Source: a bacterium
Lineage (GTDB): Bacteria; Patescibacteriota; Patescibacteriia; Patescibacteriales; GWE2-39-37
Assembly: GCA_037146995.1 (NCBI GenBank)
Contig: JBAWWA010000002.1
Coordinates: 1,955-65,954 of the forward strand
DNA length: 64,000 nucleotides
Direction: 5' to 3'
In this document: piece by piece, positions 68-64,000 of the stretch
How positions within the stretch are numbered: position 1 is the first letter of the stretch
Layout: the number at the start of each line of letters is the position of its first letter
The notes under the pieces: generated by a model
The model's input: the letters and a program-made list of their open reading frames with translations, nothing else
The model's database searches: none
What the model was told of the DNA's origin: nothing
Made by a program: the position numbers and the translations under genes

Positions 68-451
68 TTAGAAAAATTTCCACCACGGTATTTTTTTCTC
101 ATCTTTAACTATCTGCTTTGCTGCTTTAGCATTTGAGACCTGCTGAATCATATTAACTATATGATTTTTTAAATTATTAATTTCTGCTTCAACTAGCGGT
201 CCATCATACTCACCAGCATGAGCACTTTGACCTTGATAGCTAGCCTGTTTTTGATCGATATGCAAACTAAAAGTGATTTGATTGCCAATCTCCTTAATAT
301 AACAATGATATCGAGGAAAATGATCTCTTGAAACTCGTTTAGCATAGCTATCTTTGCCTGTGTGATAACTCGTAATATGCGCATAACCAAAACGCTGCAA
401 AATTTCATGACCAGACATGGGTAGTTTATCTTTGTAGACTGAAAAATCCAT
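68..451 (-). CDS. hypothetical protein (127 aa)
   Basis: ORF with plausible start. I do not recognise clear family motifs. Followed by intergenic region and a terminator belonging to the next gene. Confidence 0.4.
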   Translation of the reverse strand: MDFSVYKDKLPMSGHEILQRFGYAHITSYHTGKDSYAKRVSRDHFPRYHCYIKEIGNQITFSLHIDQKQASYQGQSAHAGEYDGPLVEAEINNLKNHIVNMIQQVSNAKAAKQIVKDEKKIPWWKFF

Positions 452-522
452 ATTATTCTAATTTAATATTTCAACTTATCGGCTAGAATTGTGCTCATAT
501 CTTATAGTATACCACAAAATAA

Positions 523-548
523 AACAACCTACGTTGCCGTAGGTTGTT
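523..548 (-). terminator. rho-independent terminator after the RRM gene
   Basis: Perfect 11-bp inverted repeat AACAACCTACG-ttgc-CGTAGGTTGTT. On the minus strand it is followed by TTTATTTTGT. Confidence 0.6.
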
Positions 549-568
549 TCTATATTCAAATCGGTAAT

Positions 569-883
569 TTACCAGCTTGAAGTACGTGGTGCGCGATCAC
601 CACCGCGATCGAAATCACGACGTGGAGGGCGAGCTTCCATTGGACGAGCTTCGTTGACCGTAATAGTACGACCATCTAACTCCTTGCCATTGAACATGTC
701 AATAGCCTGTTTTCCAGCTGCGTCATCAGCGAATTCAACGAAACCGAAGCCTTTTGAGCGACCAGTCATTTTATCCTTGATAACAATAGCAGAAGCAACT
801 TCACCAGCCTGCGCAAAATATTCGCGCAATGATTCGTCGGTTGTACCCCATGAAAGAGATCCGACAAACAATTTAATAGCCAT
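569..883 (-). CDS. RNA-recognition-motif (RRM) RNA-binding protein with Arg/Gly-rich C-terminal tail
   Basis: RNP-2-like IKLFVGSL and RNP-1 KGFGFVEF motifs. C-terminal RPPRRDFDRGGDR. Confidence 0.85.
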   Translation of the reverse strand: MAIKLFVGSLSWGTTDESLREYFAQAGEVASAIVIKDKMTGRSKGFGFVEFADDAAGKQAIDMFNGKELDGRTITVNEARPMEARPPRRDFDRGGDRAPRTSSW

Positions 884-1042
884 ATGCAGTTTTTACTTAG
901 AATTGAAGAACAATTCTATCTTTATAACGTAAGAGCGACCTTTCCTGCTCTCTCTCATCACTTGCATACGCATTAACGAGATACTAACGTGGAATCACTT
1001 ACTTAATATGAGAATAGCATATAATACTAGCAAAGTCAACAT

Positions 1043-6213: not shown

Positions 6214-9142
<2,929 letters not shown>

Positions 9143-9179: not shown

Positions 9180-11327
9180 TTAGCTAACTTTAAAATAGTC
9201 ATCCTGGGGAAATAATTTTGACCCAGCCTTATGTAAACTCTTAACTTTCAGTTTATCACCTTTGGTCTTGTATACCTCGATTTCGAGCTTAAGCCAATCA
9301 ACGTCCATGGGATCTAACCTTTTACCGGTTTTTATATACTCCAAAGCCATATCCAGCTGACCAAGCATAATAGATGTGTCAGCGGATTTCTTATAGACCA
9401 GCTTTTCCTCGCGTATAACCATGGTTCGATGCTCTAGATTCATCATTTTGTCAGTCGTATTTGGATAGAGCTTTATGGCATTATTATAGTGTATTATGGC
9501 CCTTGAGAAATCACCCACCCGATAATTTAGATCACCCCAAGCTAGCTCGACTAAGGCATAACCGCCAGTATTTTTTTTAAGCTGACTAAATTTATCATTT
9601 ATGAGCAAAAATAGCTGGCTCTGGCCGCTAGGTAAGCCTGGTGGCAACAATCTGGTCAAAACCATCAAGGTGCTTAATTTTGCCCTAAAGGTCTGCGGCT
9701 CGTTATCAGTATTTAATATTTTTTTTAACAGTAAATCAAAAGCATTTTTATCAATCACGCCCGAATCGAGATAGCTTAAGGTAGTAGCTAATAACTCAGC
9801 CCGGTAAAAACCCTCAAATTGGTTGGAAGGTGCTGTGACAGTAATTTTATTTGCCCAAACAAGATAGTCGTTTTGGTTGCGAGCCAGGTTAAGCTGACGA
9901 AAATAATGACTTGCCATGATGCCTTGAATATAAATAAAAGAGAGATAACCGAGGAATGGCAATATTATTATTAAATAATAACTCCGCTGCCCAAGAGTAA
10001 TGACCTGGCGCTCACTAACCAAGGCTAAAATTATTCCCAAAGTCAAAGCCAAATAACTGGCCGTTACGATAGTAATAAATGAAAACAATAAACTAACCAA
10101 AAAACCCAAGAGAGCAAGTAACAACAATTTAACCACTTTTTGCTCCTGCAAATCAAGGCGAGTTTTATATGCTTGCTTAATAACTCTTAGAACAAACCAG
10201 GCCAATATTAAAGCTACACTAAAAGTCACCAAGCCTGACTCAAAAATAAAATCGAGAAAAATATTATGCAGTCTGTCAGGATTGGCATTTATGGCCTCGA
10301 CAATTGCCCAACTGCCATTATAATAGCGATACAAATAAAGCTCTTGCGTGTCCTGACCATACCCGAGTAAGGGTTTTTTGGAAATTAAGTCTAAGCCGCT
10401 CCGGTAAAGCCCAAACCTATACGTCCCCTGATTTAAGCTAAAAGTGCTTAAAACACGATTACCAACCGAGCTATAATTAATAAAAATATTTTCACTGGCC
10501 GTATTTTTGGTTATTAAAAAACCAGCAGTCATGGCTAGCAACAAAAATGTCAACAAACAGACTGAATAAAGTATCCATTTCTTTGCCTTAAATTGCCTCA
10601 AATAAAAAATAAAACTGACCAATACGGCTGCAAATAAACCAAGCCAACCGCTACGACTTAAAGTAAAAACAAGCGTTAGCAACTGTAACAACCACGAGAT
10701 TAAATAAAGAAACTTTAATTTGCTCTTAGTTACTAAATACCCCCACCAACTAAAAGCTAGACTAAAGAGTAAATATGCTGCCAAATAATTTGGCTGACCT
10801 AAAGTGCTGGCCGCTCGCAGACGCACCGGGTCAAATATTTCATACTCATAAAAATCTAGACCGGCCACCTGAAGTAAACCATAGATACTAACCAAACTAG
10901 CCGCAGCAGTCAGGGCAAGCAAAAAATATCTTAATTTTTCTTGAATTAATGGCCACCAAGCAAATACTAAATATAATAATAACCACAGCTCGAGCTCTAA
11001 AAAAAAGCCAAAACCTCGCATGGCGGAACCAAAAAAGGCGACGCTGCGAAATTCAGAATTGCATGCGCTCAAAAATCTTAGTGTAAAATATAATGCCCAA
11101 AGGTACAGCAACTTTTTATTTTGCGGCAAGACAAGTTCTTTGGTTAAAAAACTTTTCACTACAAACAATAGTGCTAGCCAAAAAATAAATACGCTAAAGA
11201 CGAAAATTTTAAATAATTCAAAAGAGTGCCAAATTTGCGAATTAAAAACCAAGGGCAAAGCAAAAAAACCAGCGCTTAAGCTAATAATTATTAAATGATT
11301 AATTTTTGAAATTATTTTTTCCTGCAT
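9180..11327 (-). CDS. O-antigen-ligase (Wzy_C) family membrane protein with C-terminal TPR repeats; candidate pilin O-glycosyltransferase
   Basis: About 12 TM segments. LSRSGWLGL motif typical of Wzy_C/O-antigen ligase/PglL/TfpO. C-terminal TPR-like YNNAIKLYP region. Gene immediately downstream of the pilin gene. Confidence 0.7.
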   Translation of the reverse strand: MQEKIISKINHLIIISLSAGFFALPLVFNSQIWHSFELFKIFVFSVFIFWLALLFVVKSFLTKELVLPQNKKLLYLWALYFTLRFLSACNSEFRSVAFFGSAMRGFGFFLELELWLLLYLVFAWWPLIQEKLRYFLLALTAAASLVSIYGLLQVAGLDFYEYEIFDPVRLRAASTLGQPNYLAAYLLFSLAFSWWGYLVTKSKLKFLYLISWLLQLLTLVFTLSRSGWLGLFAAVLVSFIFYLRQFKAKKWILYSVCLLTFLLLAMTAGFLITKNTASENIFINYSSVGNRVLSTFSLNQGTYRFGLYRSGLDLISKKPLLGYGQDTQELYLYRYYNGSWAIVEAINANPDRLHNIFLDFIFESGLVTFSVALILAWFVLRVIKQAYKTRLDLQEQKVVKLLLLALLGFLVSLLFSFITIVTASYLALTLGIILALVSERQVITLGQRSYYLIIILPFLGYLSFIYIQGIMASHYFRQLNLARNQNDYLVWANKITVTAPSNQFEGFYRAELLATTLSYLDSGVIDKNAFDLLLKKILNTDNEPQTFRAKLSTLMVLTRLLPPGLPSGQSQLFLLINDKFSQLKKNTGGYALVELAWGDLNYRVGDFSRAIIHYNNAIKLYPNTTDKMMNLEHRTMVIREEKLVYKKSADTSIMLGQLDMALEYIKTGKRLDPMDVDWLKLEIEVYKTKGDKLKVKSLHKAGSKLFPQDDYFKVS

Positions 11328-11846: not shown

Positions 11847-12002
11847 TATTTCACCTCCTTTCTAATTATTAAATATGTTTATTAAAAAACAGTTATCCAC
11901 ATTATAACATAAATTTATATATAACCGGTAGTGGCAAGGCAAGTAAGCAATAATTCAATCAATTATTTTTTTAAAACAATCACTCTAAAACAACTCACCA
12001 CA

Positions 12003-12380
12003 TTAAACTAGCTTTAAGAGCTTCTTGACCTTAGCCACCACCTCCGCCGGCACAAAATGAGCCTTAATCAAATAATCCACTGCTCCCAAATCCAGACCAC
12101 TCTCCACTTCTGACCGCTGACTAAGATTTGTTAGCAATAGAACCATAATATTTTTTGTCTCATCATGAGTTTTTAGTTCTCGCAAAACATCAAGGCCATT
12201 CATTTTTGGCATCACAATATCAAGGAGAACAATGTCTGGCAATTCCTTTCTAGCAAGTCTTAAACCCTTTTCCCCGTCATCAGCACAAAAGACCTCAAAA
12301 TTTTCGAGCTCAAATTTGGTAGCATAAATACTTTGTAAAAATGAGTCATCCTCTACAATTAATAATTTAGGCTTGTTCAT
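12003..12380 (-). CDS. stand-alone response-regulator receiver (CheY-like REC) protein
   Basis: LLIVEDD acidic pocket, phospho-acceptor Asp in LLDIVMP, conserved Thr/Lys positions. 125 aa, no output domain. Confidence 0.8.
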   Translation of the reverse strand: MNKPKLLIVEDDSFLQSIYATKFELENFEVFCADDGEKGLRLARKELPDIVLLDIVMPKMNGLDVLRELKTHDETKNIMVLLLTNLSQRSEVESGLDLGAVDYLIKAHFVPAEVVAKVKKLLKLV

Positions 12381-12384
12381 TGAT

Positions 12385-13662
12385 TTAAATATAACGATCT
12401 AGTTTTAAAATATTATTAAACGCTAGCTCACCAGACAAGGCCTTAATCAGAGCATCCTGTCGCAAACTAACCAAGGTAGTGTCGTCTATTAAATCAATCA
12501 ATCGATATTGGCCAGTCTTATTAATTAAGCCATTTTTAAATTTCTTGTTAATCTGCGCAAATTCCACCAAGTCGGTCAGTCCTGTTAAGCCACTATTTTG
12601 ACATGACACACAACCGACGCCCTCGACAAAATGCCACTCCGAAGATATCAATTTAGCGAAAACTATTTTTGCCTTAACTGGCAAGTTATTGATTTCAGGC
12701 TGAATTAGATCTTTAGCTTGACTATCAATGTTAATAACTTGACGACATTTTTGACACACCTTTTCAATTTCTCTGACGACTAACACCCCACCAACCACCA
12801 AAAACCATAAATCTAGGTCGATATTTTGATGTCTTACAAATCTAAAAACATCATTTAAGCCATCAAAAATCATGCCGATAAAAACCTTCTTGCCGGCGAG
12901 TGCCAAATGAAGCGCAAAGTCAAGCTCAGCCGTGGTTTTTAATTCATCGATAATTATCACATCAAAATCCTGGGCCATCACCGCTCTCAGAGCAGTATCA
13001 CAAGTAAAACCAATTTCTGGCCTGATTTGTAATTGTTCAATCTTAGTAACATTTTTAGAGACATAATACTCAATCGATACCGCTTTTTCATTTTCACTTA
13101 AATTACTCAAGGCCAGAGAAAATAGGTAATCTTTGCGTTTTTCCACTTGCTTGCAAGTTACTATCGTGGCTGCCAGATTTTTCTTTAAATACTTGTCCAA
13201 AACCGCTTTGGTGAAATTATTAACTGGTAAGTCAGTAATTTTTTTATCTAGGTTATGATTAATATTAATCACCAAGCGAGATTCAGTTTGTGACAATTTA
13301 ATCCACGAAGCGTTTAAATAGTACTGGCGACCGTCTTGCTGATAAACTAGACGACTCAACTGAGGAAGCTTGTGTTGACTCTCGAAATCAAAATAATTAA
13401 CAACATAATTAAGTAATTCCAAAAATCTCACCCGATCGAATGCATAAACTATTCTTAATTTACCCTGATGACGGAACCTGATATTGCCGCCATTTTTTTG
13501 AAATTCAAAATGAATGGCCGTCACCGACTCATTGATCGCCGTGTCCACCACAACACCAAACAATCTATCGATTGCCAAATCAAAAAAATCCAACCGATGC
13601 AAATTTTTTGGAGTTATCGTTTCTAGGTTTTTTTTAGTTTTTTTTGCCAGAATTTTTGGCAT
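12385..13662 (-). CDS. PilB/PilT/GspE-family secretion-ATPase homologue with degenerate Walker A, Asp-box and His-box (probable pseudo-ATPase)
   Basis: Conserved TAIHFEF (SDIHIEP-like) and RFRHQG motifs, Walker-B-like DVIIIDEL and C-terminal tetracysteine CQKC...CVSC are present. No GxxGxGK[ST] anywhere in the 425 aa: the position reads TCKQVEKRKD. Confidence 0.65.
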   Translation of the reverse strand: MPKILAKKTKKNLETITPKNLHRLDFFDLAIDRLFGVVVDTAINESVTAIHFEFQKNGGNIRFRHQGKLRIVYAFDRVRFLELLNYVVNYFDFESQHKLPQLSRLVYQQDGRQYYLNASWIKLSQTESRLVININHNLDKKITDLPVNNFTKAVLDKYLKKNLAATIVTCKQVEKRKDYLFSLALSNLSENEKAVSIEYYVSKNVTKIEQLQIRPEIGFTCDTALRAVMAQDFDVIIIDELKTTAELDFALHLALAGKKVFIGMIFDGLNDVFRFVRHQNIDLDLWFLVVGGVLVVREIEKVCQKCRQVINIDSQAKDLIQPEINNLPVKAKIVFAKLISSEWHFVEGVGCVSCQNSGLTGLTDLVEFAQINKKFKNGLINKTGQYRLIDLIDDTTLVSLRQDALIKALSGELAFNNILKLDRYI

Positions 13663-13664
13663 AT

Positions 13665-14711
13665 TTATTCAAATCTATCAAGAGCTAAGCCTGCCGCCAC
13701 TGACAATCTAGGACTGATTTCAGTCAAAAGCGGCTTAAGCTCCAAAGGATACGAGATATGTGACCAAGAATCACCAACTATTACATTCATATTTAAAATA
13801 CGCGAAAGATAATTGGCCAAATTTGAAATCAAAGCTGAGCCGCCAGTTAGGATTAATTTTTCTACCTTCTTGTCACCTCGTCCCTGATAAAGGCCTATTA
13901 AATATTTTATCTCATTAACCAAAGGACTTAGAGACTCTTGAATAGTTTCAGATATTTGCGAATCAGCCGAATCGATAGCACTAATGCCCAGATCAAACTT
14001 CAGTTGCTCTGCTTCTTCCAGGCTAATGCTCATTTTTTGCGCCAAAATCTTTGACAAATTATCACCACCAATCTCAATGCTACGATTTAAAAAAGGTATG
14101 CCGCGTTCGATAATCGATACGTTAGTGGTTGTTGCACCAAATTCAGCAATCATAATCGTTGTCTTGTCGCGACCCATCAAGGCCCTGATCAACGAAAATG
14201 TTTCTGACTCAAGGTTTATTAATTTTAATTTGGCTTTTTTAAAAATATCTTGATACTTGGTAACCAGTACACGCGGAGCCGCAATAACAAAAATCTTTAA
14301 AAGTTCTCGGTTATTTTCCAAACGAGACTCGATCAAGCGCCATTCTAGAACTACATCTTCGATCGGTACCGGTAAAACTTTTTTAGTTTCCCATTCGACT
14401 GCTTGGTCAATCTTTTCCTTGTCGATATCAATCAGATTTATAATTGAAGAAAAAACCGAATAAGCCGGGAGCGAAGCCACGACTGAAGTCGCCTTCATGC
14501 CTGCCTGCGCAATAGTCTTGACTATCAATTCAGCAATTTTATCATTATCATTTCTCCATTTAACTTCAGCATCAGGTGTCAAATTTTCACTAAAGCCATA
14601 ACTTAGCAGCTTGGCCTGATCGCCTACCTTGGTTAATTCAACAATTTTTACACCAGAACTGCCCATATCGATACCAAGGTATCCGGTTTCAGGTGAAGAT
14701 AATATTCCCAT
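13665..14711 (-). CDS. pilM: type IV pilus assembly protein PilM (actin-like ATPase fold)
   Basis: N-terminal GIDMGSSGVKIVEL phosphate-1 motif. 348 aa. FtsA/PilM-like organisation. Head of the pilus gene string. Confidence 0.8.
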   Translation of the reverse strand: MGILSSPETGYLGIDMGSSGVKIVELTKVGDQAKLLSYGFSENLTPDAEVKWRNDNDKIAELIVKTIAQAGMKATSVVASLPAYSVFSSIINLIDIDKEKIDQAVEWETKKVLPVPIEDVVLEWRLIESRLENNRELLKIFVIAAPRVLVTKYQDIFKKAKLKLINLESETFSLIRALMGRDKTTIMIAEFGATTTNVSIIERGIPFLNRSIEIGGDNLSKILAQKMSISLEEAEQLKFDLGISAIDSADSQISETIQESLSPLVNEIKYLIGLYQGRGDKKVEKLILTGGSALISNLANYLSRILNMNVIVGDSWSHISYPLELKPLLTEISPRLSVAAGLALDRFE

Positions 14712-14794
14712 ATAGCACTTTATTAAGTAATGATTATATTATATAATAATAAGAGCTGATTGACAAACAATTTTTATCAAATATTATCGACCTT

Positions 14795-16054
14795 ATGAAT
14801 TTTTTTGAACGCTACAAGAAATTAATGATCGGCCTAGCCTTTATTGGCTTCACTGCCCTAATTGGCTATTTTTTATACATAGTGTTCTTTAAGCAATCAG
14901 TCACTACCATACCGATAACCGATGATCAATCGGGCAAAAGTCAAACTGGCTTGCCGTCTGCCTCTCTTGGCACTGACAATCAAATCATTAATAACGGCAC
15001 AGAACAAAAATTAACTGGTCAAAATACTAATAACAACACACCAACTCCTGACACAGGCAGCACCGCTGACTTAGTCGCCAAAGGTGGTATTACCAAAGTC
15101 GAAACTCTTACCAATACTCCCAGCTATGGTGTCAATATGGCCAAAGGCTCAAATGATGCCAGGTATTATGACTCAACTGAGGGTAAATTTTACAAAATCG
15201 ATGCCAATGGCAACAAGACTGCCCTATCGGATAAAAGCTTTTTCGAAGTTCAAAAAGTTACTTGGTCAGGCGCTAACAACAAGGCCATCTTAGAATATCC
15301 TGATGGCTCAAAAACCATTTATGATTTTGATAAGCAAAATCAAATTACCCTGCCCGAACATTGGAAGGATTTTTCATTTTCACCTGACGGTTCCGAGATT
15401 GTTATGAAAACAATGGCAAATGATGTGAACAATCGTTGGCTAGCGGTGACGTCAGCTGATGGCAACAAGGTTTATCCCGTCGAACGAATCGGCGATGAAG
15501 CCAGTATTATTCCGTCATGGTCACCAAACAAACAAATTGTGGCCATGTACACAGAAGGTGCTGGGCTGAATTCGCAAAAAGTCTACTTTGTCGGCTTGAA
15601 TGGTGAAAATTTTAAATCAGCCACCATTGATGGTCGTGACTTCAGACCGCAATGGTCACCACAAGGCGATGTCCTGGCCTACAGTACCTACTCCGATTCA
15701 TCAGACCTTAAGCCAAGCATGTATGTGGTACCTGCCCAGGGTGAACATATCGGCGAAAATACTAAAAATTTAGAAATAAATACCTGGGCTGACAAGTGTT
15801 CTTTTGCAGACAACACCACATTGTACTGTGCTGTACCAAAAGAACTTGAAAGAGGGGCAGGACTCTTTCCCAAAATGGCAGACAACACGGCTGATGACAT
15901 TTACAAGATCGATGTGCAAAGTGGCTTAAAAACCAAGATTGCCGTCCCTGAAACAGATTTGAATATCGTTGAAATGAGCATCTCGGCCGATGGTAGTAAT
16001 TTATTTTTTAATGACAAAGCAACTGGCTTATTACACAAGATTAAACTAAAATAA
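14795..16054 (+). CDS. membrane-anchored TolB-like beta-propeller (PD40 repeat) protein
   Basis: N-terminal TM helix. Repeated FSFSPDGSEIV / PSWSPNKQIVA / PQWSPQGDVLAY / ISADGSNLFF PD40-like blades. Confidence 0.6.
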   Translation: MNFFERYKKLMIGLAFIGFTALIGYFLYIVFFKQSVTTIPITDDQSGKSQTGLPSASLGTDNQIINNGTEQKLTGQNTNNNTPTPDTGSTADLVAKGGITKVETLTNTPSYGVNMAKGSNDARYYDSTEGKFYKIDANGNKTALSDKSFFEVQKVTWSGANNKAILEYPDGSKTIYDFDKQNQITLPEHWKDFSFSPDGSEIVMKTMANDVNNRWLAVTSADGNKVYPVERIGDEASIIPSWSPNKQIVAMYTEGAGLNSQKVYFVGLNGENFKSATIDGRDFRPQWSPQGDVLAYSTYSDSSDLKPSMYVVPAQGEHIGENTKNLEINTWADKCSFADNTTLYCAVPKELERGAGLFPKMADNTADDIYKIDVQSGLKTKIAVPETDLNIVEMSISADGSNLFFNDKATGLLHKIKLK

Positions 16055-16266
16055 TGAAAACAAAAAAATCAAACAAACTGTTTATCATATTTTCAATTAG
16101 CACGCTTATTATCGGAGTAATTGCTTTTAAATATTTATTAATAACCAGTCGACATAGCAGTAGTAATAATAGTCAGTCGGTCACAGCTACCAAAAGTCTG
16201 GATGCAAGTTGCTTTTCTACTACCGAAGACCCATTTGTCACAAAAGTCGACCCAAACTGCAACTAA
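16054..16266 (+). CDS. small membrane protein (70 aa)
   Basis: TAATGA start/stop overlap with upstream gene and stop abutting radA start. One TM helix. Confidence 0.45.
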   Translation: MKTKKSNKLFIIFSISTLIIGVIAFKYLLITSRHSSSNNSQSVTATKSLDASCFSTTEDPFVTKVDPNCN

Positions 16267-32396: not shown

Positions 32397-33515
32397 ATGA
32401 AAAACACGAATGGAAAATTTATTGTCATAGATGGTACCGATGGCTCTGGCAAAACCACTCAACTTGAATTATTGGCAAGCAGATTAAAAAGCCTGGGTTA
32501 TAAGGTAGAGTTAGCAGACTTCCCTCAATACAATAACAAGTCAGCCGGTCTGGTTGAGGAATATTTATCGGGCAAATATGGGAGCGCTGATGAAGTTGGA
32601 CCATATATTGCCTCAGTTTTTTATGCCGTCGATCGTTTTGACGCCAGCTTTAAAATCAGAGAATGGCTCAAGAGCGGAGCCATTGTTTTATCCAATCGCT
32701 ATGTTGCCGCCAATATGGGCCACCAAGGAGGTAAAATTTCCAACCCCCTTGAGAGAAAAGCCTATTTTGATTGGCTATACAAACTCGAGTTCGAAATGTT
32801 CAACCTGCCCCAGCCAGACCTAAACTTAATTTTACATGTTCCCGCCAGGGTGGCTGCCGAAATGGCCGCCGCCAGAACTCGAATTGATTGGTCGGGCAAG
32901 ACGGCAGACATTCACGAAGACAATCTCTCACACCTCATTAATGCCGAGCAAACGTATTTAGAAATAGCCGAAGGCTTTCCAAATTTTAAATTAGTCTCCT
33001 GCGCACAGGATAATCTAATAAAATCAAAAGAAGAGATAAATGACCTCATTTGGTCAGAAATCAATCAATTAATCAACCCAAACGCCGAACCAGAATATAT
33101 CGATATCGAAATAATCAATCAACAAGGGAAACTACCAACAAGAGGCAACGAAAACGACGCTGGTCTGGACTTATATAGTGCCGATTACTACACACTTCTG
33201 CCAGGCGATCGAGCTATAATCTCAACTGGTATTAAGATTGCCATACCAAATGGCTACACAGGCTTGATCTGGGATAAAAGTAGCGTATCTAGTTGCGGTA
33301 TCAAAGTACTAGGCGGAGTCATAGATGCTGGCTATCGCGGTGAAATAAAAATCGGTCTCATTAATTTGAGCCGCGAGCCATATCTAATAAGCTCTAGCCA
33401 AAAAATAGCACAAATCTTAATTCAAAAAATAAGTCTACCAAAAGTCAGGACAAATAAAATCAACGACAATACCTCGCGCGGTACAAATGGTTATGGTAGC
33501 ACTGGTATGTATTAA
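32397..33515 (+). CDS. bifunctional thymidylate kinase / dUTP pyrophosphatase fusion protein
   Basis: N-terminal Tmk P-loop IVIDGTDGSGKTTQ with DRF/LID. C-terminal dUTPase motifs RGNENDAGLDLYSA, GYRGEI and a terminal Gly-rich tail. Confidence 0.75.
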   Translation: MKNTNGKFIVIDGTDGSGKTTQLELLASRLKSLGYKVELADFPQYNNKSAGLVEEYLSGKYGSADEVGPYIASVFYAVDRFDASFKIREWLKSGAIVLSNRYVAANMGHQGGKISNPLERKAYFDWLYKLEFEMFNLPQPDLNLILHVPARVAAEMAAARTRIDWSGKTADIHEDNLSHLINAEQTYLEIAEGFPNFKLVSCAQDNLIKSKEEINDLIWSEINQLINPNAEPEYIDIEIINQQGKLPTRGNENDAGLDLYSADYYTLLPGDRAIISTGIKIAIPNGYTGLIWDKSSVSSCGIKVLGGVIDAGYRGEIKIGLINLSREPYLISSSQKIAQILIQKISLPKVRTNKINDNTSRGTNGYGSTGMY

Positions 33516-33561
33516 TGATGATTATTAAGTTTTTAGCCAAGTAAAAAATTCAATCAAAAAT

Positions 33562-34962
33562 ATGAACAATTCACCTAGAATTTATGCCTTAAAAAATTTA
33601 TCCCCAGAAGTCGCCGCAGTAACTTTTGCTAAATGTTCAAGATCGGCTGAACCATTTGACGTCATAGCTAGAGAGCTAAGCGATGAGAAATCAGCCGAAT
33701 TTAACGAAAAATGGGTGGTAAATTATGGCCATGGCTCAGTAGCTGAACATGCCTTTATGAATATTGCCATCGAAAACGTTTCACTTATTGCCGTCGAAGC
33801 AATTCAGGCAAATCGTCTGGCGTCATATACCGAAAAATCATCACGCTATCAGGTTTATACCAGAGATAGAGTTTTCGTGCCAAAGGCCCTATATTACGAT
33901 TCGCGCCTCATATCTAGTTATCTAGAATCGATAAACGCTCTATATGATCTTTATGAAAAATCAATTGAACCAATCAAAGCGGCAATCGAAAAACTATACC
34001 CGAATGACAAAAATCTAAGCGAAGCAGCATATCAAGCCAGCATTAAGTCTAAATGGATAGACGTAGTACGTTTCGCTTTACCCAATACTGCTTTAGCAAA
34101 TTTAGGCATGAGTGCCAATGCCCGCACCATGGAATATGCCATAACTAAAATGCTTTCACACCCGCTAGAAGAGGTTCGTGAAATTGGCGAATCTGTTAAG
34201 CGCGTGGCACTAGAAATCACGCCTACCCTGGTTAAATACGCTGACGCTTCAAATTACTATGCCAGAAATGAAGACTTTTTATTCAAAACTTCGCTTGACC
34301 AATTGGATGCCGTAAAGCCTAGCGACTTTAATAGAGACAATCAACTATCAGTCGATCTAATCGACTACGACCCGAATGGCGAAAACAAGGTTCTAGCGGG
34401 CATGCTTTATAAATTTAAATCAATTTCTTATCGTGAAGCTTTAGAACACGTAGAAAAAATGACTGAAGCTGATAAGGCAGAGATTTTCAAAACTATTCTT
34501 GGTGATGCCAAAAATATTTACGAGAAGCCGCCACGTGAGCTCGAATATCCATACTACACCTTCGATGTTATGCTCGATCAAGGTGCCTACTACGACCTCA
34601 AGCGCAATCGGATAATGACCCAAACTCCACAAATTTTAAGCGCTGATTATGGCTACTATACACCAAAATTATTTGATCAAGTTGGCCTAGGTAACGATTA
34701 TCGCAAAGCCATGGACCAGGCGCATGAGACAGCAAGACTTATAAGCCAATATCATCCTTACGAGGCTCAATATATTACCACTAAGGCAACGGCGCGACGT
34801 TTTGTCATGAAAATGAACCTAAGAGAAGCTTTTTATTTCATTGGACTGCGCTCACGCCAAGGCGGACACTTCACCTACCGCAAAATTGGCCAACTATTAC
34901 ATCAGCAAATCCTAAAAGTCCATCCAAACTTAGCAAAATATATACTAGTGGATAATAGTTAG
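33562..34962 (+). CDS. tandem-duplicated ThyX-like (flavin-dependent thymidylate synthase family) protein with degenerate RHR motifs
   Basis: First repeat: EAIQANRLASYTEKSSRY aligns with ThyX ELVRHRIASYSQQSQRY, and the ARFALPNTALANLGMSANARTMEYAITKM helix is ThyX-like. Second repeat has LKRNRIMTQT and a NLREAFYFIGLRSRQGGH tail. Confidence 0.6.
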   Translation: MNNSPRIYALKNLSPEVAAVTFAKCSRSAEPFDVIARELSDEKSAEFNEKWVVNYGHGSVAEHAFMNIAIENVSLIAVEAIQANRLASYTEKSSRYQVYTRDRVFVPKALYYDSRLISSYLESINALYDLYEKSIEPIKAAIEKLYPNDKNLSEAAYQASIKSKWIDVVRFALPNTALANLGMSANARTMEYAITKMLSHPLEEVREIGESVKRVALEITPTLVKYADASNYYARNEDFLFKTSLDQLDAVKPSDFNRDNQLSVDLIDYDPNGENKVLAGMLYKFKSISYREALEHVEKMTEADKAEIFKTILGDAKNIYEKPPRELEYPYYTFDVMLDQGAYYDLKRNRIMTQTPQILSADYGYYTPKLFDQVGLGNDYRKAMDQAHETARLISQYHPYEAQYITTKATARRFVMKMNLREAFYFIGLRSRQGGHFTYRKIGQLLHQQILKVHPNLAKYILVDNS

Positions 34963-57670: not shown

Positions 57671-59224
57671 TTACATGTCAGTACCGGAATAACTCAGGTT
57701 AAGCGATTTGTTGCACAGCGGAAAGTCTGGTACGATATTGCCCGGACCGATGATGCCAAAGGTGGCCCAATTACAAAATGATGGATCACGCGGAAAACAA
57801 CGCTCAATCTGGCCGTTTCTTATTACTACAGCACAGAGAACTTCACCCCGCCATGACTCGGTTGCGCCAATAGCGTAACCATCTCTCGGTGTGCAATTAA
57901 CGCTATACTCACCGGTCGGCATTTGATCAATTAAAATATTAATGAGTCGCACTGTTTCGTTTAATTCATCTAGACGCGCCGTAAATCGCGCATGAACATC
58001 ACCAGCCGTTTTTACAACCACTTTAACCGGAAATTTCGCGTAAGCAGCGTGCGGAAAATCGCGCCGAACATCACGATCAACCCCGGAACTTCTAGCTGGC
58101 AATCCCAGTGCGCCAAAGGCCTTGGCCGCTTCCAATGGCAAAATTCCAGTTGTCTGCAAACGATCCATAAAACCTTCTGAGGACAAAGCAGTCGTTGTTA
58201 TTTCCTTGATCTCGGCAAAAGCCTCATTAACAACTAGCTTGATACGAGCCAACTCGGAGGTGGTAAAGCTTTTAGAAACACCCCCTGGCAAAATCAAACC
58301 TCGCCAAAATCGATTACCAAGCACTTCCTCTGACAAACGCATTAGACGTTCTTTGACTCGAAAACCATTGGCCGCAATAAAACTAAAGCCTGTGCCCATA
58401 CCGCCAATATTAGCAATGTCGTGAACATGCATCGTCAAGCGTTCAAGTTCAGCAACTAGCGTTCTTAAAATCAAGGCCAGTTCAGGCACATTAACGTTGG
58501 CAAGAATCTCTACGGCCTGACAATAGGCCAAAGCATTGGCAGCCGCCATATCACCAGACAAGCGCTCAATAAATTTCAAACCCTCAACCGGAGTTTTGCC
58601 TTCTAAAAGCTTCTCGACGCCTTTGTGAGTAAAGAAAAGCTTGCCCTCTAAAGTAATAATACGCTCGCCTGCCACATTAAATCTAAAATGACCAGGCTCA
58701 ATAATACCCGCATGAATCGGTCCGACTGGAATTTCAAAAATCCCCTCGCCTTTGACATGGCCCATCGGATATGGCTCATTGGCATGTTCAAGTTTTTTAT
58801 TCCAAATAAAATCTTTTCTTAATGGGTGAGTAGCATTAGGAATATTTTCATGATTAACCAAACGACGCAAATCTGGATGGCCATCCGGCACCACACCGAA
58901 CATGTCATGACTATAGCGTTCATACCAATGTGCGGCCATAATCGTCGCAGTAATCGACGGATAATGAGGGTGACTAGCACTCACCTCCGCACGCAGTTCG
59001 AGCCGCTCATGACTCTCGTCTAGACTAAATACTGCATGAACTGTGTAGCATTTTTTTTCAGCCCGTTCATCGGTCACAAACATTAACGATAATGGCAGGT
59101 CATATTCATTCACCAAAGCAGTCGCTATTTTAGCTATATCATCACTGTTAACCGTAACACAATATATGTTGGCCAGGAGTTCTGCCTTAAGTTGTAATTT
59201 TGACAAAATTTCTAAAGCTTTCAT
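57671..59224 (-). CDS. fused NuoC/NuoD-like (HycE-like) large-subunit homologue lacking all [NiFe]-binding cysteines
   Basis: N-terminal 30-kDa-subunit motif HWYERYSHDMFGVVPDGHPDLRRL. Large-subunit motifs GPIHAGIIEPGHFRF. The L1 site reads ERLSGDMAAANALAY (canonical R-x-C-G-x-C). The C-terminal L2 site reads NLSYSGTDM (canonical D-P-C-x-x-C-x-x-H/R). Confidence 0.8.
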   Translation of the reverse strand: MKALEILSKLQLKAELLANIYCVTVNSDDIAKIATALVNEYDLPLSLMFVTDERAEKKCYTVHAVFSLDESHERLELRAEVSASHPHYPSITATIMAAHWYERYSHDMFGVVPDGHPDLRRLVNHENIPNATHPLRKDFIWNKKLEHANEPYPMGHVKGEGIFEIPVGPIHAGIIEPGHFRFNVAGERIITLEGKLFFTHKGVEKLLEGKTPVEGLKFIERLSGDMAAANALAYCQAVEILANVNVPELALILRTLVAELERLTMHVHDIANIGGMGTGFSFIAANGFRVKERLMRLSEEVLGNRFWRGLILPGGVSKSFTTSELARIKLVVNEAFAEIKEITTTALSSEGFMDRLQTTGILPLEAAKAFGALGLPARSSGVDRDVRRDFPHAAYAKFPVKVVVKTAGDVHARFTARLDELNETVRLINILIDQMPTGEYSVNCTPRDGYAIGATESWRGEVLCAVVIRNGQIERCFPRDPSFCNWATFGIIGPGNIVPDFPLCNKSLNLSYSGTDM

Positions 59225-59231
59225 ATATTTT

Positions 59232-60692
59232 TTAACTTAAATTTTTTATAATATCAACCACGAAGCCAGTGCCACTTGACGATGTAAACCAAACACCCAA
59301 CAAGATAACTGCAATTATATGAACCAACATGACACTGTGAGTAATATTCCAGTGCTCTCGTGTCTCATTTAAATCAGTAGTATTTGCTTTTTCCAAAATC
59401 ATACCAATTGTCGTTCTTAGCATGCCAAAGGCAATAACACCAAGGGCAATGAAAACCGCGATTGACAGATACAAATGAGCTTTGATCATTGCCGAAAAGA
59501 GCGTAAATTCACTAACAAATAATATTGACGGTGGCATTGCCACAATAAAAATTATCCCGATTAAAAACAAAGAGCTCGTATAGGGCGCATACTTTAACAA
59601 GCCGCCAACTTTAGTTGTGTCAGTTGTTTTATAGCGCAACAGTATTTCACCAGCTCCAAAAAATAATCCAGATTTTATGATTGAATGACCAATCATATGG
59701 ATAACTGCAGCCATTACGCCGATAGGCGGCAAGGCCAAGCCTAGGGCAATCAAGCCCATGTGCTCAATACTTGAATAGGCGAGCATCCTTTTGTAATTCC
59801 TTTGCACGAGCAACATAAAGGCTGGTAATACGACCGACAAGATACCGAAAAATAAAAAGAATTTACCAGTCCATTCACTCCCGCCTATGGCCTGATTAGC
59901 AATCATTTGAAAACGAATAATCGCATACAAAGCCACGTTTAACAATATGCCAGAAAACAAGGCCGAGATTGGCGATGGCGCCTTGCTGTGGGCATCTGGT
60001 AGCCACGTATGGATTGGCGCGAAACCGACTTTAGCACCAAAACCCACAAAGATAAAAACAAAAGCCCATTTTACAAGCTCCGGCGACAAGGCGCTAGTAT
60101 TCTTCAATAAATCACTGATCAAAAAACTAACTGATTGATCTGCCCCAGCCTGCGATGTATAACCGAGTAAAAGTATGCCAATCAAACCTAAAGTAATACC
60201 AGTTGAGCAAATAATAATATATTTCCAAGCAGCCTCAAGTGATGAGCGCTTGCGATAAAGACCAACCAAGAAGGTCGAAGATAAAGTTGTTGCTTCTAGA
60301 GCCAACCACATAATCAAAGTATTATTAGTGACAACGACTAAAAACATTGCCATCACGAACAAAGGTAGCAAAGTGAAATATAATTTTAGATCATTGATTT
60401 TCACCTCTCCATCCTTAAATTCATGACCAATATAGCGCACACTAACAATAGTGGCACTTAAAGATAATAAAGCGATTAGACTAGCAATCAAGGCTCCGAA
60501 TCTATCCAAATAAAACCACTCAGTAATTAAAACCTCTGTGCCAAAAAATTGTGGTGAGACGAATAACCAAATTGTCAAAGCAGAAGCGATGGATACAGCA
60601 CCAGCCGACAAACGAATGATTTTTTCGTTTTTTTGCACCACAGCAAGAATGACTGCCAAACTAAAAAGTCCAAAGATAAATAAAATATTCAT
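59232..60692 (-). CDS. NuoN/NuoM/MrpD-family antiporter-like membrane subunit
   Basis: 14 TM helices. Hallmark ...GFAPIHTWLPDAHSKAPSPISAL. Confidence 0.85.
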   Translation of the reverse strand: MNILFIFGLFSLAVILAVVQKNEKIIRLSAGAVSIASALTIWLFVSPQFFGTEVLITEWFYLDRFGALIASLIALLSLSATIVSVRYIGHEFKDGEVKINDLKLYFTLLPLFVMAMFLVVVTNNTLIMWLALEATTLSSTFLVGLYRKRSSLEAAWKYIIICSTGITLGLIGILLLGYTSQAGADQSVSFLISDLLKNTSALSPELVKWAFVFIFVGFGAKVGFAPIHTWLPDAHSKAPSPISALFSGILLNVALYAIIRFQMIANQAIGGSEWTGKFFLFFGILSVVLPAFMLLVQRNYKRMLAYSSIEHMGLIALGLALPPIGVMAAVIHMIGHSIIKSGLFFGAGEILLRYKTTDTTKVGGLLKYAPYTSSLFLIGIIFIVAMPPSILFVSEFTLFSAMIKAHLYLSIAVFIALGVIAFGMLRTTIGMILEKANTTDLNETREHWNITHSVMLVHIIAVILLGVWFTSSSGTGFVVDIIKNLS

Positions 60693-60693
60693 A

Positions 60694-62289
60694 TTATTCG
60701 GTTAAATTTCTCAATTCCTCGGTATCCACTGAACCGTAAAAATACTTAATTCGTGAACCAAGAAGCGAAAGAATTAAAGCTGTTAAAGCGGTGACGGTAA
60801 AAACACCCATCTCAATTATTAACGGCAATGACTTGACTGTCACAAGCGTAAATATGGCGATACCATTTTCAACAACAAGCAGACCGATAATTTGAGAAAA
60901 AACATTTCTATGGACAATCATAGTGGCAAGACCCAAAACTAGCAGCCCAACTGAAGCAAACAATAAACTACTCCACTCAACCAAGGCAAAAATTGGCGTC
61001 TTTTGAACAATAAAAAATACAAAGACTAAAAGTAGCGCTGCCAAAAGATAGCTTGAAGCCGGTCTCAAGAAAGACTGTAAATTCGCCGTATGTCGCTGTT
61101 GTTTTTCCATTATCTTAATAACGTATGGCACTAACAGGACTTTTACGGCGATCGTTACAACAGCGAAAATCAATAAATGAGTCTGCTCTTCTGGGGCCAT
61201 TAAGGCAAGACTATAGGCAATGCCTGCAATCATTAATGATGAGGCTGCATAATATCTAAGTATTGATTTCAATCTTAACCGACCGAAGAGTAACACCACA
61301 AAGAAAACCGACATAGCAGCAAAGACAGTATAATATTTTATATCAGGTCCGGTAAGTTTGACATATACAGCCACCATCATGCCAAAAAAAGCCGTAAAAA
61401 AAGCCAAGGATAAATATTCAGGCATCCTATAAAACCTCATTTTAACTATGGTCATTTCTAACCAACCCAGCAAGACGGCAACCATAGAAACCTTAAGGAT
61501 TGCCAAAAGTATAGCCAAAATACCACCACCGACACTAAGACTAAAAATCGTTACAGGCGGAAAAACAAAATTCGCAATTAAAATTGAAAAGGCTGCTAAT
61601 TTTATTGCCGAAGCGTATTCTAGCAAGGCCAAATAGCGACCAGAATATTCAAGAATCATGGCCTCATGAACCATAGTTAACTCAAGATGCGTTGCCGGAT
61701 TATCAACAGGATAACGTGCATTTTCAGCCAGTGAGACCAAGACAAAGGCAATCATTAAAATTATCAAATGCGGGGCACTAAAAATTAAAGACTGCGCAAA
61801 CATACCATCAAGCTGAAAAGAGCCTGTCACAAAAGCTAAAGCACCAAATATCAAAATAACAGTTGGCTCAATCAACGAGGCCAGAGTCATTTCACGCGAT
61901 GAGCCCATGCCCCCAAAAGCGCTAGCGGAATCTAGACCGCCCAAAACCAAAAAGATCGAGCCAACAATCATAAAGGCTGCTACCACCAAAAAATCACTAG
62001 CGAAAGCCAAGGCACCACCACTAAAAACTAAGGGCAATATAAAAGCCAAGGCTATTGTCGAGGCTAGTACCACAAAAGGTACGGCCCTAAAAACCCAAGA
62101 AGTGGATTTTGAGATAACCATTTCTTTCTTGAGTAAAGTCAAGATCGTATAATAGGGCAAAAATGGCGAAGCTCCGCGTCTGCCCTGCAATCGAGCCTTG
62201 GTAAACCTAACCAGACCGACAGAAAATGGTGCTACCAACAATATGGTCAGGCCTTGCAATATTGTAGCTAAAATTTGAAATGAGTTCAT
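60694..62289 (-). CDS. NuoH/HycD-like membrane subunit fused to a C-terminal ~200-aa polytopic extension (HyfE/NuoK-like?)
   Basis: N-terminal LLVAPFSVGLVRFTKARLQGRRGASPFLPYYTIL matches the NuoH/HycD signature. Total 531 aa versus about 310-330 for NuoH. C-terminal third has about 6 extra TM helices. Confidence 0.7.
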   Translation of the reverse strand: MNSFQILATILQGLTILLVAPFSVGLVRFTKARLQGRRGASPFLPYYTILTLLKKEMVISKSTSWVFRAVPFVVLASTIALAFILPLVFSGGALAFASDFLVVAAFMIVGSIFLVLGGLDSASAFGGMGSSREMTLASLIEPTVILIFGALAFVTGSFQLDGMFAQSLIFSAPHLIILMIAFVLVSLAENARYPVDNPATHLELTMVHEAMILEYSGRYLALLEYASAIKLAAFSILIANFVFPPVTIFSLSVGGGILAILLAILKVSMVAVLLGWLEMTIVKMRFYRMPEYLSLAFFTAFFGMMVAVYVKLTGPDIKYYTVFAAMSVFFVVLLFGRLRLKSILRYYAASSLMIAGIAYSLALMAPEEQTHLLIFAVVTIAVKVLLVPYVIKIMEKQQRHTANLQSFLRPASSYLLAALLLVFVFFIVQKTPIFALVEWSSLLFASVGLLVLGLATMIVHRNVFSQIIGLLVVENGIAIFTLVTVKSLPLIIEMGVFTVTALTALILSLLGSRIKYFYGSVDTEELRNLTE

Positions 62290-64000
62290 AAAGCGATACT
62301 TAAAGCAACAATTAAGGTTGCCAATAACAAAAGTAAATAATACTGAATCCTGCCGCTTTGGATTAATTTAACTCTAAGCGATAAAAAATTCATAAATTTC
62401 TCAATGGGCAGATACACGCTACTCTTCCAGGCAGAACTAATTAAAAGCGAAAATGAATAATTACGAATCCAGGGATTAGTGACCACAACTGGCTCGCTAG
62501 TAATTAATTTGTTTCTGCCAATTAAATTGAGGAAAAAAAATCTGATCGGCGCCGAAAAAGCGGCTGCTGTATATTCCATAGTTGAATTTATCGGCTGTCC
62601 GCAATCCCAGGTATGATATGAACGCTCTTTTTTATTTAGCGCAAAGAAGTAATTCAAAAGATAGGCAAATAGTAAAAAACCTAAAACGACGGACAATAGT
62701 TGCATAGATGATATAGAGCCAATGGCATTTTCCGTAATCAATTCAGAACTATTTAATACATTGGAAATAATGCTAATAAAATAATTTGCAAAAATACCAA
62801 TACTTAAAACACCAAGTGCTAATCCGGCAATCGGCCAAACTAAAAGTCCATCACCTAACTCAGACTTTATTTCATGCTCACGATACCTTGGCAAGCCCAG
62901 CATAGAAATAGCAAAAATCTTGATCATCGCAAAAACAGCTAAACCCCCGATCAAACCGATTACTGATAAAATTAGAACCACAATTGGCAATAGCATGCCA
63001 CCGGCTTGAGACATTAAACTAATAGCCACATGAATCAAGCCCCATTCGCCATAAAAAGTACCGAACGGCGGAATTGGTAACGAACCCATAATAACCAGTA
63101 AAAAGAAAAAAGAAAATAAAGGTAAAGACTTCGCAAAGCCACCCATAAGCTCTAGACTGCGAGAATGGACACGACTAATGACTAAACCACTCGAAAGGAA
63201 TAGGGCCGTCTTAAAGAAGGCATGACTCAAACTATGAATGATAGCAAAAACAATCAAGGGAATAAAATATCTCATTAAATTTGAATGAGCATAGTTTGCT
63301 GTAATATAAATTGCCAAGCCAATAACAGAAAATATAATTCCCATATTTTCAATACTGCTATAGGCAAAAGCCTTTTTCATGTCAGTTTCAATTGCCGCAT
63401 AAAGTGCGCCGACAACACCGGACACAAGCCCAAGAATGATCACCAAGGTGCCAGCCCAGGTTGGCATGTAGGCAAAATTCAAGACCACCATCAAGAAACC
63501 ATAAATCGCCACTTTTAACATCAAGCCAGACATAAGAGCGGAAATATTGCTTGGAGCCTGTGGATGTGCTTCTGGCAACCAAACATGGAGTGGAACAAGT
63601 CCAGCCTTTGAACCAAATCCAAATAAAAACAAACAAAAGGCAGCAGTAGCCAAAGTTGGCGTCAACTGCTGTGTCACTTCTTGAATCATTGATAAATCAA
63701 AAAACAAGGAGCCATTTCCCAATATTAAAAAACCACCTAATATCGCCGAAGCTCCGAGGTGGGTCATAATGAAATACAAGAATGCTGCGTTGAAAGACTC
63801 TTTAGTCTTGTCTGACAATACCAAAAAGAAAGAACTTAGAGACATTACCTCCCAAAAAAACAAGAAAGTAAATGAGTTGTTGGCAAGCAATACTGCCTGC
63901 ATACCAAAAACAAACAATCCCATTAAAAATTGGGTTGTGTATTTGTTATAAGTTTTTTGATACAGATCAAGATATCTAACACTATAAACGCCAACCAAAG
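62286..64000 (-). CDS. NuoL/MrpA/HycC-family antiporter-like subunit (N-terminus lies beyond window end)
   Basis: Hallmark GLVPLHVWLPEAHPQAPSNISAL. ATGA overlap with the next gene. ORF runs to the window edge. Confidence 0.8.
   Translation of the reverse strand, partial: LVGVYSVRYLDLYQKTYNKYTTQFLMGLFVFGMQAVLLANNSFTFLFFWEVMSLSSFFLVLSDKTKESFNAAFLYFIMTHLGASAILGGFLILGNGSLFFDLSMIQEVTQQLTPTLATAAFCLFLFGFGSKAGLVPLHVWLPEAHPQAPSNISALMSGLMLKVAIYGFLMVVLNFAYMPTWAGTLVIILGLVSGVVGALYAAIETDMKKAFAYSSIENMGIIFSVIGLAIYITANYAHSNLMRYFIPLIVFAIIHSLSHAFFKTALFLSSGLVISRVHSRSLELMGGFAKSLPLFSFFFLLVIMGSLPIPPFGTFYGEWGLIHVAISLMSQAGGMLLPIVVLILSVIGLIGGLAVFAMIKIFAISMLGLPRYREHEIKSELGDGLLVWPIAGLALGVLSIGIFANYFISIISNVLNSSELITENAIGSISSMQLLSVVLGFLLFAYLLNYFFALNKKERSYHTWDCGQPINSTMEYTAAAFSAPIRFFFLNLIGRNKLITSEPVVVTNPWIRNYSFSLLISSAWKSSVYLPIEKFMNFLSLRVKLIQSGRIQYYLLLLLATLIVALSIAL

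Follow-up and report, generated by a model that had tools for sequence, protein, structure and literature searches.

PilB-type motors, which together with GspE and PilF form the extension branch of the T2SSE superfamily, are regarded as universally catalytic. Other ATPase folds organize or regulate type IV filament machines, among them TadZ, an atypical ParA/MinD protein with a receiver-like domain, and the archaellum protein ArlH/FlaH, a KaiC-like modulator of ArlI. These proteins come from other ATPase superfamily branches, still bind ATP, and are not degenerate copies of a motor. Inactivated forms of the retraction ATPase PilT are described in Vibrio cholerae and Pseudomonas aeruginosa (PMC6762196); apart from one natural variant, all are point mutants, and their fold and P-loop geometry are intact. 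Because PilT defective in ATP binding or hydrolysis still supports PilU-driven retraction (PMC6762196; also PMC6821130), a dead family member can serve a live one as its adaptor to the machine. Genes for the pilus machinery, pilB among them, are widespread across Patescibacteria (PMC12206443). Here we describe psPilB, a protein encoded in 64,000 nucleotides of a Patescibacteria genome (assembly GCA_037146995.1, contig JBAWWA010000002.1, positions 1,955 to 65,954; the whole stretch is referred to as the window). Unlike the inactivated PilT proteins, psPilB is motif free throughout its lineage and belongs to the extension branch.

By both homology and fold, psPilB is a member of the T2SSE superfamily. 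Its match to Pfam T2SSE (PF00437) reached 81.3 bits against a cutoff of 24.9 (E = 6.9e-23) and covered profile positions 8 to 369 of 370, and its best relatives among solved structures were GspE/EpsE, PilF, and PilB, with E values of 3e-18 (GspE 4pht) to 1e-8. An AlphaFold2 (AF2) model, for which only the eight family sequences described below served as input, had a mean predicted local distance difference test score (pLDDT) of 82.5, a predicted template modeling score (pTM) of 0.72, and the bilobed fold of an N2D domain and a C-terminal domain (CTD). Foldseek placed this model with the extension ATPases PilF, PilB, and GspE (5oiu, 5zfr, 5tsh, and 1p9w; E values of 1e-26 to 1e-29; template modeling [TM] scores of 0.6 to 0.76), whereas PilT4, PilU, and DotB, which are retraction or type IV secretion relatives, matched at only about 1e-14. 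Likewise, the PilT profile TIGR01420 gave 16.5 bits against a cutoff of 319.1. Given these differences and the presence of a four-cysteine CM domain, psPilB is in the extension-ATPase branch and not in the PilT branch. The original prediction, which was made from the DNA letters alone and named a GspE/PilB/PilT fold, is therefore narrowed to the extension branch.

Despite this fold, psPilB is without four of the catalytic features by which GspE/PilB ATPases are defined. It is 20 to 29% identical to any active PilB, and it fell below the equivalog cutoffs for GspE (TIGR02533, 98.3 versus 630.25 bits) and PilB (TIGR02538, 79.8 versus 675.65 bits); unlike PilB and GspE, it scored 80 to 98 bits where NCBIfam asks for 630 to 850. 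The protein is identical to NCBI MEI8360632.1, encoded on a 114,563-bp contig and annotated "MAG: ATPase, T2SS/T4P/T4SS family [bacterium]," where MAG stands for metagenome-assembled genome. Filing psPilB as a PilB ATPase is inappropriate, and the public label "ATPase" is misleading.

The anatomy of the protein shows what was kept and what was lost. Like PilB, GspE, and PilF (5oiu, 5zfr, 5tsh, 4pht, and 1p9r), psPilB has an N2D and CTD fold, a Cys4 CM domain, and the IHxE and RxR motifs, but in contrast to them it lacks Walker A, the Asp box, the His box, the arginine fingers, and the N1/GSPII domain. Its features are as follows.

12385..13662, minus strand: psPilB, a 425-amino-acid PilB/GspE-fold protein without ATP-handling motifs
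13579..13662, minus strand: Lys/Arg-rich disordered N-terminal tail, amino acids 1 to 28 (pLDDT, 33), standing in place of the N1/GSPII domain of full-length PilB
13243..13578, minus strand: N2D domain, amino acids 29 to 140, with the core motifs AIHFEF (amino acids 49 to 54; H51 and E53) and RFR (R62 and R64) kept
13129..13167, minus strand: former Walker A, amino acids 166 to 178, TIVTCKQVEKRKD, with all three glycines absent
13057..13077, minus strand: former Asp box, amino acids 196 to 202, SIEYYVS versus T[LI]EDPIE by motif alignment
12934..12969, minus strand: Walker-B-like segment, amino acids 232 to 243, DFDVIIIDELKT, where the canonical Walker B is DPDVIMVGEIRD
12865..12897, minus strand: former His box, amino acids 256 to 266, AGKKVFIGMIF, where the canonical motif is TGHxVxSTLHT
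12601..12756, minus strand: tetracysteine CM (zinc) domain, CxxC-X44-CxxC, with C303, C306, C351, and C354

In an alignment with P-loop-bearing relatives, the Walker A sequence GPTGSGKT is replaced by CKQVEKRK. The Walker A lysine has become R176, which is invariant in all eight members of the family, and at the site of the P-loop the model has a three-residue turn that leads directly into a helix. The Asp box EDPIE reads EYYVS, and only its first glutamate survives, in three of the eight members. Where a Walker B motif of the form DxDxxxVGExRD is expected, the window protein and its two closest orthologs retain D232 and E240; the position of the catalytic glutamate holds T, S, H, L, or A in the other five members. 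The acidic pair that had been called Walker-B-like is thus kept in these three proteins only. The Walker B glycine is replaced by D239, an aspartate in seven of eight members and a glutamate in one. In the His box, the first histidine has become K258 (seven of eight members) and the second, in psPilB, I265, and E246 (again seven of eight) takes the place of a conserved threonine. The arginine-finger motif PQDGR reads PQLSR in psPilB and is lost in more distant members, and the arginine that follows the CM domain is gone as well (GYxGR to GLTGL in psPilB). By contrast with these losses, the four CM cysteines are invariant in all eight members, with a spacing of 32 to 45 residues, and a basic N-terminal tail with 6 to 10 Lys or Arg residues in the first 30 amino acids is common to the whole family. 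The CM zinc domain contributes to the stability of EpsE hexamers, and its presence separates extension from retraction ATPases (PMC5061722).

The gene lies on the minus strand, which the original prediction had not specified. Every string quoted in the original prediction is present in the protein at a definite place: AIHFEF at amino acids 49 to 54, TCKQVEKRKD at 169 to 178, DVIIIDELKT at 234 to 243, AGKKVFIGMIF at 256 to 266, and the four cysteines. Its claim that the P-loop, Asp box, and His box are lost is borne out by the alignment (CKQVEKRK, EYYVS, and AGK..MIF), with the same loss in seven relatives, and its claim that fold and zinc site are retained agrees with the full-length T2SSE match, the AF2 and Foldseek results, and the four cysteines. 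A P-loop hidden by a frameshift or a misassembly was ruled out, because no GxxxxGK[ST] or GxxGxG[KR] motif was found in any of the six frames of 11901-14800 and a motif scan found no T2SSE-type P-loop anywhere in the window. With the P-loop, Asp box, His box, and arginine fingers absent, psPilB very probably neither binds nor hydrolyzes ATP in the canonical manner. Thus, the description of psPilB as a probable pseudo-ATPase stands: nucleotide-handling motifs are absent or replaced, the fold is kept, and the open reading frame (ORF) and the gene order are conserved in eight loci.

psPilB is not a lone oddity. We sought relatives in 5.8 billion clusters and 1.84 billion representatives and found seven, all from other assemblies or samples, with 23 to 49% identity to psPilB and without P-loop, Asp box, or His box. 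The closest two (P0002 and P0003) are 48 to 49% identical to psPilB, and the other five (P0008, P0011, P0013, P0017, and P0042; 413 to 421 amino acids) are 23 to 29% identical. The ORF is intact in all eight members (413 to 426 amino acids). The family is rare, with six clusters at 50% identity among the 1.84 billion representatives and no relative in the GTDB representative genomes, and it occurs in a narrow Patescibacteria clade related to Ca. Falkowbacteria; the GroEL encoded in the window is 81% identical to proteins from Ca. Falkowbacteria MAGs and 75 to 77% identical to those of other Patescibacteria, which places the host near Falkowbacteria. The JGI metagenome contigs gave a sole, weak match to the family pattern, at 277..912 of JACKQG010005986.1, a T2SSE-like segment 25% identical to the query over query residues 154 to 382.

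Across 120 P-loop-bearing PilB domains, conservation reaches 85% or more at 95 alignment columns. Only 22 of these columns are kept in at least six of the eight family members, and they make up the N2D core (A42, H51, E53, R62, R64, G67, L69, and Q101) and the zinc site. At the former catalytic positions, the family has instead acquired conserved residues of its own, R176, D239, K258, and E246, which suggests from the alignment that the pocket was remodeled rather than left to random decay. We infer that salt bridges among these four residues may build an internal network by which the former pocket is filled and held fixed.

Selection on the gene points in the same direction. Synonymous divergence (dS) was saturated in almost every pair, so the evidence is limited to nonsynonymous divergence (dN) and ORF integrity. 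The dN of psPilB was 0.34 to 0.46, compared with 0.08 to 0.10 for pilM, and was the highest among the seven neighborhood genes compared; psPilB therefore evolves 4 to 5 times as fast as pilM and, unlike PilB and GspE, several-fold faster than the pilus genes beside it. Between the window and locus L001, psPilB is 48% identical, compared with 85% for PilM, 74% for the response regulator, 67% for the pilin, and 87% for RadA. Toward L003, from the most distant genome, these values fall to 26% for psPilB, 53% for PilM, and 69% for the response regulator. The clade is deep, with RadA identity down to 66% and PilM identity down to 53%. Faster evolution is expected after loss of catalytic constraint. 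At the observed base composition, the chance of an open frame of 425 codons is about 3e-15. Because the frame is open in every lineage at saturated dS and a PilB fold is predicted with confidence, psPilB is not a simple pseudogene and is kept under purifying selection.

The gene lies in an operon with core type IV pilus genes, and in this respect too it resembles PilB-type genes, which are found in pilus clusters with PilM, pilin, and PilD. The neighboring features are as follows.

13665..14711, minus strand: PilM, actin-like, 348 amino acids, with its stop codon 2 nucleotides upstream of the psPilB ATG
12003..12380, minus strand: single-domain CheY-like response regulator, 125 amino acids, starting 4 nucleotides past the psPilB stop codon
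11412..11846, minus strand: type IV pilin with the methylation motif GFTLIELLVV, behind a 156-nucleotide AT-rich spacer and a strong Shine-Dalgarno sequence, AAAGGAGGTGA
9180..11327, minus strand: Wzy_C (O-antigen-ligase-like) and TPR membrane protein, 715 amino acids, directly downstream of the pilin, a candidate pilin glycosylase
8330..9142, minus strand: prepilin peptidase PilD (A24_N_bact and Peptidase_A24)
14795..16266, plus strand: divergent pair adjoining pilM, made up of a 419-amino-acid protein with an N-terminal transmembrane helix and a 70-amino-acid transmembrane protein

The order pilM-psPilB-response regulator-pilin is the same in all eight recoverable loci (the window, L001, L002, L003, L005, L008, L009/L010, and L011), and on contigs that are long enough it continues with the Wzy_C protein and then PilD. 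The junctions of 2 and 4 nucleotides suggest that psPilB is translationally coupled to, and cotranscribed with, pilM and the response regulator. The response regulator is 69 to 74% identical across the clade. The Wzy_C protein, also found at this place in L001, L003, and L008, is reminiscent of the pilin O-glycosyltransferases TfpO/PglL, whose genes adjoin pilA; it diverges about as fast as psPilB, with 44% identity between the window and L001. Of the divergent pair, the 419-amino-acid protein occurs in all six loci that reach that far and the 70-amino-acid protein was called in five of them (not in L011). The larger protein has no Pfam match in the window and a faint Tricorn_2nd mark in relatives, and the pair is at most a tentative part of the pilus system.

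Other parts of a pilus machine were sought around this cluster. PilN and PilO were not found in the cluster or elsewhere in the window. A phmmer search of all window ORFs with psPilB and five genuine PilBs as queries returned only psPilB, and Pfam scans of the other window ORFs of at least 110 amino acids (three overlapping shadow ORFs left out) found no T2SSE, T2SSF, or PilT. There were also no pilus genes on a 12-kb contig that reaches about 3.5 kb beyond the window end. The other window genes with Pfam matches are mostly housekeeping genes, and the G+C content is 35 to 43%.

A hidden Markov model (HMM) built from the eight members indicated where the family may have come from. Scores were at least 527 bits inside the family and then dropped to 208 bits, and the best P-loop-bearing matches were two short PilBs, P0023 (431 amino acids, GPTDSGKTT, 208 bits) and P0032 (424 amino acids, 193 bits). 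The latter, PJA09086.1 from Ca. Falkowbacteria, has fully canonical motifs with both histidines kept. Like psPilB, these short PilBs of Falkowbacteria-like Patescibacteria lack N1, have the same length, and consist of a short tail, N2D, CTD, and CM; unlike psPilB, they have GPTGSGKST or GPTDSGKTT and EDPIE or EDPVE, and they keep the catalytic glutamate. The gene for P0023 occupies the same position as that for psPilB: it is flanked by a gene for a PilM fragment, which shares 42% identity with PilM of the window, and by one for a response regulator that shares 60% identity with its window counterpart. Judged by this arrangement, the module of PilM, short PilB, and response regulator seems older than the loss of catalysis, the motor seems to have lost catalysis in place, and psPilB seems, by its position, to be orthologous to an active short PilB.

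Taken together, these results lead us to favor, as somewhat probable, the reading that psPilB descends from a short, N1-less PilB, is catalytically dead, and is kept by selection as a nonenzymatic subunit of the cytoplasmic pilus platform. Because it has an extension-type fold, the CM zinc domain, the N2D core, and operon coupling to pilus genes, psPilB would still assemble and dock as PilB does, without ATP turnover. It would dock on the PilM ring, on PilC, or on both, and would work there as a scaffold, a placeholder, or a signal-input module for the response regulator, while pilin polymerization would be driven by a P-loop-bearing PilB encoded elsewhere. We infer the oligomeric state of psPilB, its binding partners, and the separate active motor from these relationships.

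Several points weigh against this reading. No active PilB, PilT, or PilC is encoded in the window, and the partner motor is for that reason an assumption. Direct contact with the response regulator is weakly precedented, because Synechocystis PilB1 was bound by PATAN-type regulators only and not by CheY-type regulators (10.1101/2021.06.11.447907). By identity, psPilB diverges fastest in the cluster, save for the Wzy_C and 70-amino-acid proteins, and so high a rate is in keeping with relaxed constraint and hard to square with an obligate complex whose parts coevolve tightly. Finally, positional orthology with an active short PilB is based on one contig of 2.3 kb.

A bolder form of the same idea makes psPilB an ATP-independent signaling clutch, in which the dead protein, its pocket rewired by the charges of R176, D239, K258, and E246 and itself frozen in one conformational state, would sit on the PilM ring and the CheY-like regulator would gate engagement of the active motor. 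More radically, psPilB would be the only PilB of its lineage, and no dedicated extension ATPase would take part in assembling or holding the pilus. We consider the clutch, in either version, quite unlikely. Somewhat better placed, though still unlikely, is a poison or brake subunit, the role suggested in the original prediction. Here psPilB would share hexamers with an active paralog, PilB or PilT, or compete with it for docking on PilM or PilC, and so throttle extension or retraction. The N2D core motifs and the hexamer-stabilizing CM zinc domain are both retained, mutant EpsE variants are dominant negative, possibly through mixed oligomers or competition (PMC5061722), and a regulated brake would fit well in an operon that also encodes a response regulator. 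However, the window has no partner ATPase for it to act on, and with 20 to 29% identity to active PilBs and 73 of the 95 conserved columns changed, a well-packed mixed hexamer is less likely than a homo-oligomer. PilB can also signal independently of pilus assembly. In Myxococcus, apo-PilB takes part in regulation of exopolysaccharide (EPS), and signaling persists in a Walker A mutant (PMC11656802, PMC5544727). By analogy, psPilB could be a PilB-shaped signaling output of the adjacent response regulator, its constant neighbor, with no role in the pilus. This is very unlikely, as the gene stands between pilM and the pilin gene in every locus, with tight junctions, and no other output pathway is evident within the window.

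If psPilB were a decaying relic, the remnant of a PilB gene now drifting almost or wholly without function and not yet disrupted, then its dN, the highest of the seven genes compared and 4 to 5 times that of pilM, the loss of all catalytic motifs, and the small size of the family (six clusters) would follow. Against this, the ORF is intact in all eight members despite the deep clade and saturated dS, for which chance is a poor account (about 3e-15), AF2 gave a confident PilB fold from only eight sequences, and new family-specific invariant residues stand at the former catalytic positions; we therefore hold a relic to be highly improbable. Residual NTPase activity or nucleotide binding at a noncanonical site, with R176/K177 in the role of Walker A and D232/D239/E240 in that of Walker B, is barely probable. 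An invariant basic residue does occupy the position of the Walker A lysine, and acidic residues of Walker B persist in the window protein. Yet there is no glycine-rich loop, the model has a three-residue turn in its place, the Asp box, both histidines, the arginine fingers, and the adenine-contacting arginine after the CM domain are lost, and the catalytic glutamate is absent from five of the eight members.

PilB-family proteins and pseudoenzymes are both known, but a motif-free variant in a fixed PilM/CheY context appears to be undescribed. We found no description of a natural pseudo-PilB, or of a motif-free PilB or GspE, in the searchable literature, and reviews of PilB regulation treat cofactors and engineered Walker mutants and no naturally motif-free PilB. 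A conserved dead PilB would be a natural experiment on which PilB functions, such as docking, ring organization, and signaling, are separable from ATP turnover. Patescibacteria use pili to attach to hosts and to move (PMC12206443, PMC9894109), and psPilB would give these pili a further layer of regulation. Since public annotation calls psPilB an ATPase, inventories of pilus motors in genomes of the candidate phyla radiation (CPR) may overcount active motors.

Among psPilB and its 158 best database matches, 20 of the 159 proteins, with the eight-member family included, are without GxxxxGK[ST]. Damaged Walker A motifs occur in the apparently independent PilB-like proteins P0028, P0031, P0116, P0151, P0037, P0078, P0124, and P0157, and examples of lysine-to-arginine changes are GETGSGRTT, GLQGGGRST, and GPEGSGRIT. 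P0157 (L004, 1336..2580) has no P-loop at all, and its gene is two genes from a T2SSF gene. Degenerate PilB paralogs may thus be recurrent in uncultured lineages. The best nonfamily matches also include tandem PilB-PilB fusions of about 1,000 amino acids with two complete ATPase modules (P0009, P0010, P0012, P0014 to P0016, P0018, P0019, P0021, and P0022). That these join a dead half to a live one was ruled out, as the P-loops are intact in both halves.

Two other parts of the window deserve mention. At 32397..34962 on the plus strand, a fused thymidylate kinase and dUTPase (372 amino acids) precedes a ThyX of unusual length (466 amino acids, with two Thy1 stretches), and these genes are part of a nucleotide-salvage cluster that also encodes a dCMP deaminase and two AAA_17 kinases. 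At 57671..63998 on the minus strand and in L006 (1..8203), there is a membrane-bound group-4 [NiFe]-hydrogenase/Mrp-like module, which is notable in a small-genome Patescibacteria MAG; it includes a fused Complex1_30kDa and 49kDa protein (517 amino acids), two Proton_antipo_M proteins, and NADHdh, with Oxidored_q6 just past the window end.

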